Origin: a virus
Lineage: Duplodnaviria > Heunggongvirae > Uroviricota > Caudoviricetes
Strand: one strand, 5' to 3'
IMG/VR virus record: IMGVR_UViG_2617270938_000005
Coordinates: 1-43,652 of that record
Length of the DNA stretch: 43,652 bases
This document shows, piece by piece, positions 3,246 through 27,237 of this stretch; the first letter of the stretch is position 1; each line of letters starts with the position of its first letter. The position numbers and the translations under genes were made by a program. Under the pieces are notes generated by a model. It made no database searches. It was given only the letters and a program-made list of their open reading frames with translations, and was not told the DNA's origin.

Positions 3246-4114
3246 TATGCGTACTCCTCAATGATGACATAGCCGTTAGCGCCCTTCCCTGATGCCCTGG
3301 CGATTGAGTCATATGATGCGCCAGCACCACCTCCACCAGGGAAAAATCCATCATCACCGGATGAACTAACGTGTGGAAGGCCACCATAACTACTGTGCGA
3401 TGCGCCACCTACACCACCCAGGCTTACACCAGATCCACCCTGTCCTCCCTGACCAGCCACTGAGAATATTGTCCCAACAGATGGAGCTCCCGGAATTCCG
3501 CCAGCAGAATTACCAGCAGAGTTTCCGCCCTTACCACCACCTGCTGAGATACCCAGCGCGGTAATGGTAGTGTCTCCCCCATCACCGCCATTTCCTGCAC
3601 TCCCTGCAGCAACTGCCGCACCACCAGCGCCAATAACGATATTCGCCCCATTAATGGTGCTTACGTCATATAATCCCTCAACATATGCACCACCCGCCCC
3701 ACTAGGCGCACCAGTCCCTGCGACGTCTGTCCCCTTACCCCCGCCGCCTGCACCCCATGCCTTGATTCTGACTTTTTTAGTGCCAGCAGCTTTTACCCAT
3801 GCTCCGCTAGCGGTAAAAACCTGAATGCGGAGCAGGCGTCCTTCTGCCTGATTATTAAGTGCGGACTTGAGAATATTTAGTAACGTGGCAATGTTTCCAT
3901 TATCCAGGACATCGCTTCCTGTGCTATCCGCCATGAATTGTGCAAGGACGGCAGCAATTGTAGAGGATTGCCGTAGTGCTTTATTTACTTGTGCTGACGA
4001 GGCTTTGCCGGAAAGAAAACCAGATGCCAGTACAGATAGCGCTTCATAATCAGCCTGTGATAATACGTTTGCCCCGCTACCAGTAGCGAAGGGTTTAAAA
4101 TCGTTAGTCGCCAT
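3245..4114 (-). CDS. tail fibre protein, glycine-rich repeats
   Basis: N-terminus MATNDFKPFATGSGANVLSQADYEAL is fibre-like; long G-rich repeat tract; start taken at second Met abutting upstream gene. Confidence 0.55.
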   Translation of the reverse strand: MATNDFKPFATGSGANVLSQADYEALSVLASGFLSGKASSAQVNKALRQSSTIAAVLAQFMADSTGSDVLDNGNIATLLNILKSALNNQAEGRLLRIQVFTASGAWVKAAGTKKVRIKAWGAGGGGKGTDVAGTGAPSGAGGAYVEGLYDVSTINGANIVIGAGGAAVAAGSAGNGGDGGDTTITALGISAGGGKGGNSAGNSAGGIPGAPSVGTIFSVAGQGGQGGSGVSLGGVGGASHSSYGGLPHVSSSGDDGFFPGGGGAGASYDSIARASGKGANGYVIIEEYA

Positions 4115-22824: not shown

Positions 22825-24225
22825 TTAGCTGTTTCCCAGCGCTTCCCAGATATCCATTGCCGTATCGGTTGGAGCAAACGCCATGATGAACGCGTCGGCC
22901 ACGTTCGGCGATGGTACGTCACGCTTGGCGAGGTCTTTCTTGCTTTCCACCATCACGCGCCCGTTTTTGTCAAAATCACGGTGCGGCGTGGTAAGTTCCA
23001 GCTTGAGCTTTTCCAGCAGCGGACAGGATGAGTCAATACTAATCAACTCATCTACCGGGTACTGCTCGCCGTTCTTTACCGCGTTGAAGGTGTTACGGAA
23101 GCGATCCGCTACCAGCCACCAGGCTTGCGCTTTGAGGTTGGCGAAAAAATCTTTGTTCGGGATGCCAATGTATTCGTAGTCCGGCTCATTCACACCAGCG
23201 CCAGCGTTGAAACGCTGATAGTTGATGCGGGATGCGTTCATGTTTTCGCGCTTACGATCCTCATTAATTTCTGAGAATTTCGCGCCAGCAGATGCCCCAA
23301 CGCCGATTGAGTCGTAGACGATATCAGCATCGCGCTCCAGTGCTGCCTGATACGTACGCTGGCAGCTCTTCAGCAATTCGTCTTCTTTCGCCTTCCACTC
23401 ATCCGCCCAGTACACGACGGAGCCGTGGCGATAGACGTTAGCGCACCTATCGGCGCCGCTATCGGCAACGTCGAAGCCAATACGCTTACGCCCGCTTGGC
23501 TCGAAATTCAGGATTTTGTGGGCATCAACAGCCGCCTCAATCCATGACAGCTTGATAATGGCCGCATCATCATCCGACTCTGGCACGCCTTCGTAGACAT
23601 GCTTAAACCCATCCGGATCCCGGCGCTTAGCGGCTTCGATAACCTTCAGCATGGTGTCGGACAAAAAGGGGTTTTCATCGTAGTTGATTTTGCGTATCAG
23701 CGTATCTTCTGGCGGGTCGACCACAAAGTTACGCCAAACGAAATCAGTCACCAGTCCGGGGTTAAAGATAAACCAGCACTCTGAGCCCTCTTTACGGATG
23801 GTAGGCTCCAGTATCTTCCACTGGTATTCCGTCAGCGCGTGGGCCTCTTCAAGCCACAGAACGTCGATACCTTCCAGAGACTTAATCTCTTCAATGTTGC
23901 GCCAGAGCCCATAAAACACGAATTCAGACCCGGTCACCCGGTTAATGATTTTGTTGTTCAGAATGCGGAAACGATGCCGCAGGCCAAAGCGGTCAATCTG
24001 AATTTTGAGCAGGGTATACACCGACTCTTCAATTTTGTTCTGGATCTGACGTGCACAGCAAAAGCGCAGGCTGTATTTATTCGACAGAAATATGGCGATG
24101 CCAGCGGCATCCCATGATTTTGACGATGACCGACCACCATAAAGCACTTTGTTACGCGCCTGCGTCGTCCAGAAGCTACGCAGGACCGGATTCAGCGTCG
24201 GTTTGGATGTCAGAGTAGAAGTCAT
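22825..24225 (-). CDS. terminase large subunit
   Basis: ATPase motifs (LYGGRSSSKSWDAAG Walker A-like) and nuclease C-domain; start uncertain (24225 to 24333). Confidence 0.8.
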   Translation of the reverse strand: MTSTLTSKPTLNPVLRSFWTTQARNKVLYGGRSSSKSWDAAGIAIFLSNKYSLRFCCARQIQNKIEESVYTLLKIQIDRFGLRHRFRILNNKIINRVTGSEFVFYGLWRNIEEIKSLEGIDVLWLEEAHALTEYQWKILEPTIRKEGSECWFIFNPGLVTDFVWRNFVVDPPEDTLIRKINYDENPFLSDTMLKVIEAAKRRDPDGFKHVYEGVPESDDDAAIIKLSWIEAAVDAHKILNFEPSGRKRIGFDVADSGADRCANVYRHGSVVYWADEWKAKEDELLKSCQRTYQAALERDADIVYDSIGVGASAGAKFSEINEDRKRENMNASRINYQRFNAGAGVNEPDYEYIGIPNKDFFANLKAQAWWLVADRFRNTFNAVKNGEQYPVDELISIDSSCPLLEKLKLELTTPHRDFDKNGRVMVESKKDLAKRDVPSPNVADAFIMAFAPTDTAMDIWEALGNS

Positions 24226-24952
24226 TGAGGTCACGCTCTCCGTTGCCATCATCAATACCTGCATCACGGCGAAGACGATCGGCCTCCAGCGACACCTTGT
24301 CAGTAGCAGCCTTGCGATAGTCCGTATCAGCAAATATTTTGCCTACCGTCGCAAGCGTGCCGACGATGGACTCAATACGAACGGTATTGCGCATCATCGC
24401 CTTCTCGGCGGCGCTGATATTTTCCATCAACACCTTTCTTTCCTGGTCCCCTTCAGCATCTTCCAGCTTGGTCAACCACCGGCCAATATTCTCTGCGGCG
24501 ACAAGGTTGTTAGCCCGAAGGCGAAATAATTCGTCTTCGAGTGTCAACGCTTTCGCGTCTTCAATGACCTCATCTTTGAGCAGAAGGCGCCGGGCGTAAC
24601 CACCATGCTTTAACGCCTGCTGGTTGCCGGGTTGGAATGGGTTGGTCGGCGGATCGGTACGCACCCCGCGTATCGGTTTCGTATCTGGTGGAGGTTCGGC
24701 TTTTGCTTGCGTACTTTTTTGCGTACGGCCAGCGCTGGCAGGCTTTTCGCTGGTACGCACCTTGCTCTTTTGCGTACCACTTTGCGTACCATTTTTGCGT
24801 ACCTGCGTACCGCTATTGCGTACCCAGTCAAATTTTTTAGCCCTCTTCCTGATAGCCCCTTCAGTAACGCCGTATTTATCGCCTATATCACGGAGACTAA
24901 GGACTCCGGCCCGGTATGCCGATTCGATGGCCTCCCAGTCCGGTTTTGCCAT
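24176..24952 (-). CDS. terminase small subunit
   Basis: N-terminal HTH (LSLRDIGDKYGVTEGAIRKRAKKF) and position upstream of large terminase. Confidence 0.6.
   Translation of the reverse strand: MAKPDWEAIESAYRAGVLSLRDIGDKYGVTEGAIRKRAKKFDWVRNSGTQVRKNGTQSGTQKSKVRTSEKPASAGRTQKSTQAKAEPPPDTKPIRGVRTDPPTNPFQPGNQQALKHGGYARRLLLKDEVIEDAKALTLEDELFRLRANNLVAAENIGRWLTKLEDAEGDQERKVLMENISAAEKAMMRNTVRIESIVGTLATVGKIFADTDYRKAATDKVSLEADRLRRDAGIDDGNGERDLNDFYSDIQTDAESGPA
24708..24823. repeat. array of 7 direct TGCGTAC(C) repeats plus one inverted copy inside the small-terminase gene
   Basis: Copies at 24708, 24720, 24771, 24783, 24796, 24804, 24817 and inverted at 24753; they encode GTQ tripeptides. Confidence 0.7.
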
Positions 24953-25009
24953 AATTTTGTCCTCGCCTTGACATTATCGAGCCACCTCTGGAAGTGGCTC
25001 TGTAATACC

Positions 25010-25477
25010 TTACTTCAGGCATTGCGTGGTGATGTATTCCTGCAGCGCCCTCAATGCTGTTTGGTCGCTGACGATTCCGGACCGGATACCGAGAACGTTT
25101 CGTCCAGCAACTGCAGAGAGTTCGACGGTGGCATCATTGCCCATGCTGGCGGCGCCGGTGGTTTGGGTTGCGGCTGACACTGGACACTTGCCTTTGACGA
25201 GCACCCGACCACCATTATCAAGCTTGCGCTGCAGAGCATCATTTTCAGCTTTTGCATCGGCTAACTCCTTCGTGTATTTAGCATCGAGTGCATCAGCATC
25301 ACGCTGGCGCTGCTGCATGTCAGTAATGGTGGCGGTCGCCTGCTTCAGCTCACTGACTTTTTTATCGCGCTGTTCTTTGTAGGCGATGGCGTTATCACGG
25401 TAATGATTAACAGCCCATGACAGGCAAACGATGATGCAGATAACCAGAGCTGAGATAATCGCGGTTACTCTGCTCAT
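25010..25477 (-). CDS. Rz: i-spanin Rz
   Basis: N-terminal TM segment plus coiled-coil periplasmic domain; lambda Rz-like. Confidence 0.85.
25051..25257 (-). CDS. Rz1: o-spanin Rz1 (embedded in Rz)
   Basis: MQKLKMML...VVGCSS lipobox, proline-rich, embedded in alternate frame of Rz. Confidence 0.7.
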
Positions 25478-25950
25478 ACCTCAATCTCTCTGACCGTTCC
25501 GCCAGCCTCTTTGAATTTTGCAATCAGGCTGTCAGCCTTATGCTCGAACTGACCATAACCAGCGCCCGGCAGTGAAGCCCAGATATTGCTGCAACGGTCG
25601 ATAGCCTGACGAATATCACCGCGGTCAATCATCGGTAAAGCGCCACGCTCTTTAATCTGTTGCAGTGCCACAGCGTCCTGGCTTTTCGGAGAGAAGTCTT
25701 TCAGGCCAAGCTGCTTGCGGTAGGCATCCCACCAACGGGAAAGAAGCTGGTAGCGTCCGGCGGCTGTTGATTTGAGTTTGGGGTTTAGCGTGACGAGTTT
25801 GCGAGGGTGATCGGAGTAATCAGTGAATAGCTCTCCGCCAACAATGACGTCATAACCATGATTTCTGGTTTTCTGCCGTCCGTTATCAGTTCCCTCTGAC
25901 CACGCCAGCATATCGAGGAACGCCTTACGTTGATTATTGATTTCCACCAT
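25474..25950 (-). CDS. R: endolysin R (lytic transglycosylase)
   Basis: Near-identical to remembered lambda R sequence. Confidence 0.9.
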
Positions 25951-26257
25951 CTTCTATTCCGGCTTTTTTAGCAGCGAAGCGTTTGATAAGCGAACCAATC
26001 GAGTCAGTACCGATGTAGCCGATGAACACGCTCGTTATATAAGCGAGATTGCTACTTAGTCCGGCGAAGTCGAGAAGGTCACGAATGAACCAGGCGATAA
26101 TGGCGCACATCGTTGCGTCGATTACTGTTTTTGTAAACGCACCGCCATTATATCTGCCGCGAAGGTACGCCATTGCAAACGCAAGGATTGCCCCGATGCC
26201 TTGTTCCTTTGCCGCGAGAATGGCGGCTAACAGGTCATGTTTTTCTGGCATCTTCAT
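25934..26257 (-). CDS. S: holin S
   Basis: [20 protein letters not shown]... dual-start motif; lambda S-like. Confidence 0.9.
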
Positions 26258-26499: not shown

Positions 26500-26575
26500 T
26501 GGTGCTGTTTAACGGACTTGAACCGCTACCCATTCGCTTACAAGGCGACCGCTCTACCATTGGAGCTAAAACAGC
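26500..26575 (-). tRNA. tRNA, anticodon UGU (Thr)
   Basis: Manual cloverleaf: acceptor GCTGTTT/AAACAGC, D-stem GCTC/GAGC with GG, anticodon loop CTTGTAA, T-loop TTCAAGT, encoded ACCA 3' end. Confidence 0.65.
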
Positions 26576-26580
26576 ATGTT

Positions 26581-26655
26581 TGGCGGGACAGCGTGGACTC
26601 GAACCACGATAAGAAGGTTAACAGCCTTCCGTAATCACCTTTATACGACTGACCC
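26581..26655 (-). tRNA. tRNA-like, anticodon GUU (Asn), with stem mismatches
   Basis: Anticodon arm GAAGG-CTGTTAA-CCTTC, T-arm CGTGG-TTCGAGT-CCACG, CCA end; one T-T mismatch each in acceptor and D stems. Confidence 0.5.
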
Positions 26656-26711: not shown

Positions 26712-26741
26712 ATTATGGCTAAATGGATAATTGCATGTCAA
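26712..26741 (-). promoter_or_regulatory. late promoter pR'-like
   Basis: Minus strand TTGACA - 18 nt - CATAAT overlapping the 3' end of Q. Confidence 0.55.
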
Positions 26742-27237
26742 GGCCTTTAACAGCAACATGCTTAACTTTCTCAACACGTTTACGCATTTTGAAAGCATTT
26801 TGCATTGGCTGGTACAAAACAAATAACGACGCTTTCAGGATGTCGTCAATTTCGTTTCTACAGGTTGCCAGTGAAGGTTTTCTCCATCCCTCGCCACCAC
26901 GTCCACACATCTTGCGTGGCTTTGCAGTCGCGTGATAGTAGGATGCAATTGCTCGCTTAGATGAACCATGAGCGTAGTAGCTGAGGAGGATGCCAAAGGC
27001 TTTCTTGTCAATGTACATGACGGAATCGACGACCTGAGAAATCAACATTCCATCATCATCATTACACATTGGCCTTGTCATAACTCTTCCCGGCTCTACG
27101 CTCTCCATGAACTTCGCTATTACGCTGCTCATGCGCTTTTCCAGGCGGCCTGAATAAACCCATGCGCCCCACAGTTCAAGCCATCCATTCAGCCAATCGT
27201 GCTGTTCTTTGGTGAGGTTTAGTTCTCTTATACCCAT
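26719..27237 (-). CDS. Q: antitermination protein Q (phage 21/82-type family)
   Basis: Position upstream of lysis genes; [10 protein letters not shown] motif resembles the WGAW motif of Q82-type antiterminators. Confidence 0.65.

Follow-up and report, generated by a model that had tools for sequence, protein, structure and literature searches.

A heptamer array inside the small-terminase gene of a Klebsiella prophage is a candidate pac-type recognition site whose sequence covaries with a TerS helix

Results

A repeated heptamer within terS

We analysed a 43,652-nt stretch of viral DNA (Caudoviricetes; IMG/VR record IMGVR_UViG_2617270938_000005), here called the window, and an array of short repeats inside its small-terminase gene, terS. 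The terS product matched the PHROG 370 family, 'terminase small subunit' (E = 2.8e-100). The gene is 94-99% identical in DNA sequence to genes of Klebsiella phages GZ7 and Mulock (97-99% for these two) and of several induced K. pneumoniae prophages, and in Klebsiella phages GZ7 and ST405-OXA48phi1.2, where DNA identity is 98.7-98.8%, the same gene is labelled terminase small subunit. It lies directly upstream of terL, overlapping and co-oriented with it, in a head-morphogenesis operon in which terL is followed by a Phage_portal_3 portal gene (E = 2e-101). Lambda-like lysis genes (holin, lysozyme, Rz) are found upstream of terS. Judged by this gene context, the PHROG 370 match and the identity to Klebsiella phage genes, the window is a Klebsiella lambdoid prophage and the open reading frame (ORF) is its terS. 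No Pfam family was detected in the terS product; NCBIfam TerS_not_xtmA matched it weakly (18 bits, cut-off 120), and a PDB sequence search with TerS gave chance matches only (E >= 0.1).

Table 1. Features of the terS region. Positions are those of the window; the first coordinate of each direct site is the start of TGCGTAC on the + strand.
Feature	Position	Strand	Remarks
terS, small terminase, 258 aa	24176..24952	-	ORF; PHROG 370
terL, large terminase	22825..24264	-	Pfam Terminase_3, E = 5.8e-40
N-terminal three-helix helix-turn-helix (HTH) DNA-binding domain, predicted, aa 1-43	24824..24952	-
Helix 3 codons, aa 31-40	24833..24862	-	EGAIRKRAKK; putative recognition helix
Predicted disordered linker, aa 44 to ~106	24635..24823	-	between HTH and helical core
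Candidate TerS recognition part of pac site	24657..24823	-	nine (G)GTACGCA
Site 1, direct	24817..24823	-	GTA-CGC-A (VRN)
Site 2, direct	24804..24810	-	gGT-ACG-CAg (GTQ)
Site 3, direct	24796..24802	-	GTA-CGC-A (VRK); abuts site 2, 8-nt spacing
Site 4, direct	24783..24789	-	GTQ
Site 5, direct	24771..24777	-	GTQ; 12-bp unit gained or lost among relatives
Site 6, inverted	24753..24759	+	coding strand GTG-CGT-ACC (VRT)
Site 7, direct	24720..24726	-	RTQ
Site 8, direct	24708..24714	-	STQ
Site 9, inverted	24657..24663	+	VRT

Nine copies of the heptamer (G)GTACGCA, seven direct and two inverted, were found within 167 bp of terS (Table 1). The core that they share is TTGCGTAC(C) on the + strand, or (G)GTACGCAA in its coding-strand form. 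The array occupies nt 130-296 of the gene, which encode residues 44-99. The original prediction, made from the sequence of the window without database searches, had described seven direct TGCGTAC copies and one inverted copy, and all of these were recovered at their positions. The span that it gave, 24708-24823, holds these eight copies; the ninth, which is inverted, falls outside it. The array had also been described as tandem, with most direct copies sharing one longer form, and neither description held. Coding-strand start-to-start spacings are irregular, ranging from 8 to 51 nt (13, 8, 13, 12, 18, 33, 12 and 51 nt), Tandem Repeats Finder returned only fragments with periods of 8, 12 and 21 and no regular tandem repeat, and the exact longer form TTTTGCGTACC occurs in only two of the seven direct copies. 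The copies are laid out in clusters of five direct and one inverted, then two direct, then one inverted.

The full window contains 11 copies of the word, compared with 3.86 ± 1.89 expected from dinucleotide-preserving shuffles, and a count of 11 was reached in none of 100 shuffles. Only two copies, at 3248 and 12553, lie outside the array. The shuffle rate predicts about 0.015 copies per 167 bp, where nine were observed, and a Poisson estimate from the shuffle numbers, with all window positions allowed for, was below 1e-17.

The repeat is a signal at the DNA level

The heptamer is translated in three contexts. Five copies are read as xGT-ACG-CAx (GTQ three times, RTQ and STQ once each), two as GTA-CGC-Axx (VRN and VRK) and the two inverted copies as GTG-CGT-ACC (VRT); the earlier statement that the copies encode GTQ applies to three of them. 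When the protein was held fixed and each codon was redrawn from the window's own codon usage, synonymous resampling averaged 0.78 copies per trial and produced five at most in 20,000 trials, compared with the nine observed. Selection on the peptide does not yield a single 7-bp word that recurs in both orientations and in three reading contexts. The repeat is a DNA-level signal, and the GTQ, VRK and VRT peptides follow from the DNA word, not the reverse. The array lies in DNA encoding a predicted disordered linker, which can accommodate such word-imposed peptides.

We considered whether the repeat could be only a slippage-prone, low-complexity peptide linker (GTQ/VRK), with the DNA word a functionless by-product. 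The region does encode a predicted disordered linker, unit number varies among relatives, and in the tail genes of unrelated phages the identical unit GGTACGCAA, repeated in tandem, gives rise to collagen-like GTQ runs. However, this explanation is at odds with the three reading contexts and two orientations, with a copy number never reached by synonymous resampling, and with the switching of the word in all frames together when helix 3 changes (see below). It is also at odds with non-coding copies of GTACGCA in Pantoea phage PdC23 and with a frameshifted terS gene, L021, that retains all of its copies. We regard it as very improbable.

Phage PdC23 (L174, OL396571.1), with the helix VTEGAIRKQAK, carries three GTACGCA in a 70-bp non-coding stretch upstream of terS; the word occurs once more inside terS and once about 480 bp upstream (L174 coordinates 1432-1457, 1550-1556), giving five in 2.2 kb compared with 0.16 expected. 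Pseudoalteromonas phage vB_PalP_Y7 has CGCGCAA eight times, in direct and inverted form, between -110 and +304 around the terS start (L181, ~1376-1790). The Y7 HTH, PSSTIRARAK, resembles the ESTxRS class described below, and CGCGCAA is offset by one base from the word of that class, TCGCGCA. Coding is therefore not required for an array to exist.

The frameshift in L021 (IMGVR_UViG_2875262337_000001, terS from 1501) falls after about residue 61 and gives a 113-aa product, with all eight heptamers at their usual positions. It is either a sequencing error or the mark of a pseudogene that keeps the DNA signal.

Conservation and copy number among relatives

Absence of the repeat from close relatives had been named in the original prediction as a finding that would count against it. 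GTACGCA was present in all 80 window-type relatives from IMG/VR, each with at least three copies, and core sites at nt 130, 143, 151 and 164 were found in nearly all of them. The word was nearly missing from the ~2.3 kb flanks of each of these loci. Close homologues range from 249 to 267 aa and differ by whole units: GTQ occurs one to four times, and VRNSGTQ (21 bp) and KSTQ can be present in duplicate. Slippage at the array is real, as judged from these comparisons, and the length variation of TerS that had been suggested is borne out, since both unit number and protein length vary among close homologues.

The heptamer covaries with helix 3 of TerS

The N-terminal domain of TerS is predicted with confidence to be a tri-helical HTH, with AlphaFold2 helices at residues 6-15, 20-27 and 31-40 (predicted local distance difference test, pLDDT, 80-89 when modelled at full length and 88.5 when the domain was modelled by itself), and its structural neighbours are DNA-bound HTH domains. 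Residues 48-106 were modelled at a pLDDT of ~30 without secondary structure, and are followed by helices at 111-165 and 169-202 with block-mean pLDDT of ~65-89. The models are of monomers and were built on a shallow alignment of relatives more than 90% identical. When the full-length model (mean pLDDT 59) was searched with Foldseek, its long helices and disordered linker gave coiled-coil and BAR-domain look-alikes, which were discarded. The third helix is the usual recognition helix of an HTH.

Related terS genes from phages of many hosts were gathered by tblastn with the 46-residue N-terminus as query. A further 80 prophage loci, from Enterobacterales, Pseudomonas, Halomonas, Bordetella and others, came from a degenerate-pattern scan in which each species was represented by a single genome. 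A protein search of the family was assessed on the best 120 of its 2,080 matches. The class word was defined as the most frequent 7-mer among the 230 nt that follow the HTH codons. In a set of more than 300 related terS genes, a heptamer is repeated just after the HTH-encoding segment. The sequence of this heptamer covaries with helix 3 of the TerS that the gene itself encodes, and at least 11 classes were distinguished (Table 2).

Table 2. Helix 3 sequence of TerS and the heptamer repeated in the same locus.
Helix 3 (aa 31-36)	Word
(E/D)G(A/G)(I/V)RK	GTACGCA
DTA(I/V)RK	GTTCGCA
HATI(L/I)K	GTAACCA
HNTI(L/M)K	GTGACCA
HV(A/G)I(A/G/Q/T)K	GTTACCA
HGA(I/V)NK	GTATCCA
HTAIN(K/N)	GTTTCCA
HTAIQK, DTAIQK, HQAISK	GTTGCCA
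EKSIRN	GTCCGCA
EGTIRS	TCACGCA
EST(L/V)RS	TCGCGCA

The class-by-word matrix was diagonal: across 226 distinct genes, arrays held 2.5-6 cognate copies and about zero non-cognate copies. Among the relatives, cognate words occurred at 19.6 per kb in the array and at 0.082 per kb across 609 kb of surrounding sequence. An Azorhizophilus paspali prophage (L230), with the unusual helix 3 INEKSIRNRAAA and six copies of GTCCGCA, is the sole member of its class in this collection.

The 171-aa TerS type allowed words to be compared at matched sites. Its four sites are fixed in position, orientation and frame, the word differs by phage, and the encoded residues switch exactly as each word dictates (Table 3). 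Site layout therefore tracks the TerS body type, and word identity tracks the HTH.

Table 3. Words and encoded peptides at the four fixed sites of the 171-aa TerS type.
Phage	Word	Encoded peptides
EhrS_59	GTACGCA	VRS, VRT, GTQ, inverted VRT
ENT1	GTAACCA	VTK, VTK, GNQ, inverted VVT
PS-1	GTGACCA	VTR, VTT, SDQ, inverted VVT

Mutual information between residues and bases was calculated for 80 non-redundant N-terminal domains with arrays of at least three copies, and is given as bits out of the entropy of the base. Base 3 was paired with residue 32 (1.26 of 1.39 bits) and base 4 with residue 35 (1.16 of 1.25 bits). Base 5 was associated with residues 35 and 31 (0.93 and 0.85, respectively, of 0.97 bits), and bases 1 and 2 with residue 36 (0.43 of 0.59 and 0.52 bits). 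The peaks fall at residues 31, 32, 35 and 36, which are positions i, i+1, i+4 and i+5 of predicted helix 3. Family-wide, direct-direct spacings peak at 12, 13 and 15 nt, about one helical turn.

The covariation also bears on the idea that something other than TerS recognises the word, be it a host DNA-binding protein, a restriction-modification or methylation system or some further phage protein. GTACGCA does include the palindrome GTAC, and the pac repeats of phage P1 are methylation sites. However, the word covaries with an HTH encoded a few dozen bases upstream, in hosts that include Klebsiella, Pseudomonas, Bordetella and Halomonas. GTAC is missing from most variant words (GTAACCA, GTTCGCA, GTATCCA, TCACGCA), and elsewhere in the window the word is neither depleted nor enriched. 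We give this explanation hardly any credence.

Hold-out and reverse searches

A fresh IMG/VR scan supplied a hold-out set of 72 new distinct genes, of which 71 could be assigned to one of the helix-3 classes. In 69 of these 71 the helix-derived word was a top 7-mer, and both misses still hold three copies; the HATILK class dominates this set and its sequences are related, which makes the test weaker than the figures suggest.

In the reverse direction, IMG/VR was scanned for three GTACGCA separated by gaps of 1-9 nt, blind to the proteins. Of the 78 evaluable arrays, at least 55 closely follow the codons for an (E/D)G(A/G)IRK-type HTH within a TerS-like ORF. The other arrays were perfect tandem repeats, examples being microsatellites, AQVRT 15-mers and tail-gene repeats that encode collagen-like GTQ runs. 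Three IMG/VR contigs (L348, L392, L415) carry perfect (GGTACGCAA)n encoding collagen-like GTQGTQ runs in apparent tail-fibre genes, and two loci (L353, L419) carry AQVRT 15-mer tandem repeats containing GTACGCA. Such GTQGTQ and AQVRT repeats would be false positives for word-based pac-site predictors.

The same helix and word on dissimilar TerS bodies

TerS of phages HK639 (E. coli) and SEN34 (Salmonella) has only its first ~45 residues in common with the window protein. HK639 and SEN34 TerS belong to PHROG 1206, and no similarity was detected between the TerS bodies of the window and HK639 (BLASTP E = 14). Each of these two genes nevertheless holds four GGTACGCA copies at terS nt 175-275, all in the VRx frame. 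An EGAIRK-type helix with three to seven GTACGCA was also found in Edwardsiella phages GF-2 and Edno5, Klebsiella phage 2b LV-2017, Erwinia phage EhrS_59 and Aeromonas phage pAEv1818. Across HK639, SEN34, GF-2, Edno5, EhrS_59 and pAEv1818, the GTACGCA copies lie at terS nt 130-280. The same HTH-word pair is thus present, at the level of sequence comparison, on TerS bodies without detectable mutual similarity.

TerS residues 4-51 also match PHROG 30948 (80 positions, function unassigned; E = 2.4e-6), as do HK639 and ENT1 TerS at ~2e-9. Stand-alone copies of the HTH domain may exist in phages, as these matches suggest.

Other features of the neighbourhood

Three in-frame ATGs (24264, 24249 and 24225) make the start of terL ambiguous, and the gene shares 50-89 nt with the 3' end of terS; the annotation of relatives gives an overlap of 50 nt. 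A promoter and terminator scan around terS found nothing beyond shuffle expectation. Between Rz (25010-25477) and the terS start codon (24952) lies a hairpin at 24979-25000 with 10-nt arms (GAGCCACCTC / GAAGTGGCTC), 90% complementary, and a 2-nt loop; in the terminator scan it had no T-run terminator. Two tRNA genes, tRNA-Thr (anticodon TGT) at 26500-26575 (-) and tRNA-Asn (GTT) at 26581-26655 (-), are located between a Q-like antiterminator gene (26719-27237) and the holin gene (25934-26257). The linker encoded by the array contains Thr ACG and Asn AAT codons.

Discussion

The DNA-level constraint on the word, its conservation and its covariation with helix 3 in at least 11 classes support the original prediction that the array is a TerS recognition or pac region, as a candidate. 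We consider it likely, from the comparison of sequences, that the nine (G)GTACGCA are binding sites of the HTH of the TerS encoded by the same gene and form the recognition part of a pac site. The array probably marks the packaging origin of the window prophage.

A mechanism can be proposed on this basis. A TerS oligomer would present several HTH domains, and helix 3 of each would read one heptamer through residues 31, 32, 35 and 36. With sites mostly 12-13 bp apart, several HTH domains could engage one stretch of concatemeric DNA. The TerS-DNA complex would recruit TerL, which would cut nearby and start packaging, most probably by the headful mode. We infer physical binding by TerS, its stoichiometry, any wrapping of DNA, the position of the TerL cut and the headful mode. 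Headful packaging is suggested by analogy with phage Edno5, whose HTH class and word are those of the window TerS and whose genome was called circularly permuted, with no fixed ends, by PhageTerm (PMC6372524). Because the sites lie just downstream of the codons for the domain thought to read them, protein and target would stay linked through recombination, and such genetic linkage fits the finding of the same HTH-word pair on dissimilar TerS bodies. The tolerant linker would absorb the coding cost, seen as GTQ, VRK and VRT peptides, and because of the repeats, units would be readily gained and lost in this region.

Several points weigh against this interpretation. The data used to test the helix-word classes are of the kind from which those classes were drawn up, and the sequences are phylogenetically related, so that the matrix, the mutual information and the hold-out set, itself dominated by one class, overstate independence. 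No clear array of at least three copies was found in the HTH homologues Orisa03, Y11, L225, L235 and L253. Edno5, the basis for headful packaging, has a different TerS body. The nearest relatives of TerL outside the clade are those of PB1-like myophages, at 54% identity, which did not settle the packaging mode; Acinetobacter or Serratia phages are also among the nearest relatives. The Mulock genome paper has nothing on packaging, and the PseuP_222 paper is likewise without packaging data. Lastly, the TerS proteins of the pac phages SF6, SPP1, P22 and Sf6 bind DNA weakly or independently of sequence in vitro (PMC4737164; PMC9611059), so base-specific readout by an HTH is not the norm for such phages.

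The array might instead bind TerS in a phage that packages from fixed ends (cos or direct terminal repeats), serving as a cosB-like anchor beside a defined cut. Lambda-type cosB also consists of TerS-bound repeats that track the recognition helix, and in N15 one of these lies inside the TerS gene (PMC4669245). The PB1-like relatives of TerL could fit such a mode, and nothing in the window fixes how the genome is packaged. Set against this, Edno5, with the same HTH class and word, is permuted without termini by PhageTerm (PMC6372524), TerL belongs to Pfam Terminase_3, and Pfam detected no lambda Nu1-type family in TerS. Moreover, the records of close relatives break at arbitrary or conventional points (such as the start of terS or terL), not at physical ends common to them. 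Packaging from fixed ends is therefore, in our view, unlikely. The breakpoints of the records of Klebsiella phages RCIP0034 and RCIP0098 (inside terS, at window position 24265) were examined as possible physical ends and rejected, as they coincide with the terL ATG at 24264 and reflect a deposit convention.

A second possibility is that TerS binds the array for another purpose, such as autoregulation of the late operon or of its own transcription or translation. The covariation ties the word to the TerS HTH only and is silent on what binding achieves, and the sites lie within the template of the TerS transcript, where bound protein could act as a roadblock. However, we know of no precedent for autoregulation by TerS through internal sites. 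A packaging signal that tolerates shifts in position would account equally well for the arrays of PdC23 and Y7, which precede or straddle the start of the gene, and the established role of DNA binding by TerS is genome recognition for packaging (PMC9611059; PMC4669245). Such regulation appears decidedly unlikely.

If the sites are part of a pac site, as we favour, the closest known layout is that of phage P1, whose 161-bp pac lies inside pacA and holds seven hexamers, TGATCA/G, in clusters of four and three (HEX4 and HEX3) flanking the cut site (PMC10028697). Both arrays are ~160 bp long and consist of clusters of short words in the gene for the recognition subunit; the present one has nine heptamers over 167 bp. 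In P1, packaging drops when the repeats are recoded synonymously (PMC10028697). The P1 words contain GATC and are subject to Dam-methylation control and to IHF/HU bending, and the P1 cleavage site is mapped, whereas the word found here has no GATC.

In logic, the cosB sites of lambda, 21 and N15 are closest. They are short repeats of mixed orientation, and their R sequences change together with the recognition helix of gpNu1 between specificity groups (PMC4669245); the covariation described here is of the same kind on a larger scale, with at least 11 classes. Lambda R sites are ~16 bp long, lie between cosN and the Nu1 start, outside coding sequence and with an IHF site, and serve cos packaging, whereas the present sites are 7-8 bp long and inside terS. 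The repeat of N15 that falls within its TerS gene is rR2. Lambda gpNu1 is a winged HTH forming a tight dimer; in this TerS, Pfam found no Nu1-type family.

In SPP1 and SF6, pac comprises boxes A, B and C, direct repeats around the start of the TerS gene, and TerS carries an N-terminal HTH on an oligomeric ring; in the wrapping model, HTH domains are spaced about one helical turn apart (PMC4737164), which is roughly the direct-direct spacing of the sites described here. The likeness lies in sets of repeats at or near the TerS gene start of a headful phage. The SF6 domain binds pac weakly and without sequence preference, and binding showed no correlation with the boxes (PMC4737164), whereas the covariation reported here argues for base-specific readout. 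P22, a lambdoid headful phage, also has pac inside its small-terminase gene (gene 3) (PMC9611059), but as a single asymmetric 22-bp site, and its TerS is thought to use C-terminal elements and not an exposed N-terminal HTH. On present sequence evidence we file the array as a pac-type TerS recognition array, outside the P1 family because it lacks GATC and outside the lambda family because of the short in-gene sites and the absence of a Nu1-type domain.

We further favour, with less assurance than the pac reading itself, the view that this terS belongs to a large modular TerS family across phages and prophages of Proteobacteria, in which an HTH of ~43 aa reads a 7-bp word by a largely one-to-one code. 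In the code that we propose, residue 32 would specify base 3, residues 35 and 31 bases 4-5, and residue 36 bases 1-2, and each phage would write three to nine copies of its own word into or just before its own terS.

A 2022 review described the DNA-binding mechanisms of TerS as 'unclear and controversial' (PMC9611059). We found no published account of the recognition site of this TerS family or of a helix-to-word table, although our literature coverage was partial and earlier work is possible. The family combines a short word in a defined array with a small HTH and with natural specificity switches that name residue-base pairs. If the proposed reading is true, the natural covariation would be evidence for base-specific pac recognition of a kind not supplied by in-vitro work on SF6, SPP1, P22 and Sf6, and pac specificity would be predictable from protein sequence alone and reprogrammable. 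Confirmation would explain the variable-length GTQ/VRK repeat in the TerS linker and would provide a small cis-acting element with which to build transducible plasmids or phagemids. It would also allow pac and pseudo-pac sites to be predicted in prophages of Klebsiella, Enterobacter, Salmonella, E. coli and Pseudomonas, which bears on the generalized and lateral transduction of resistance and virulence genes.

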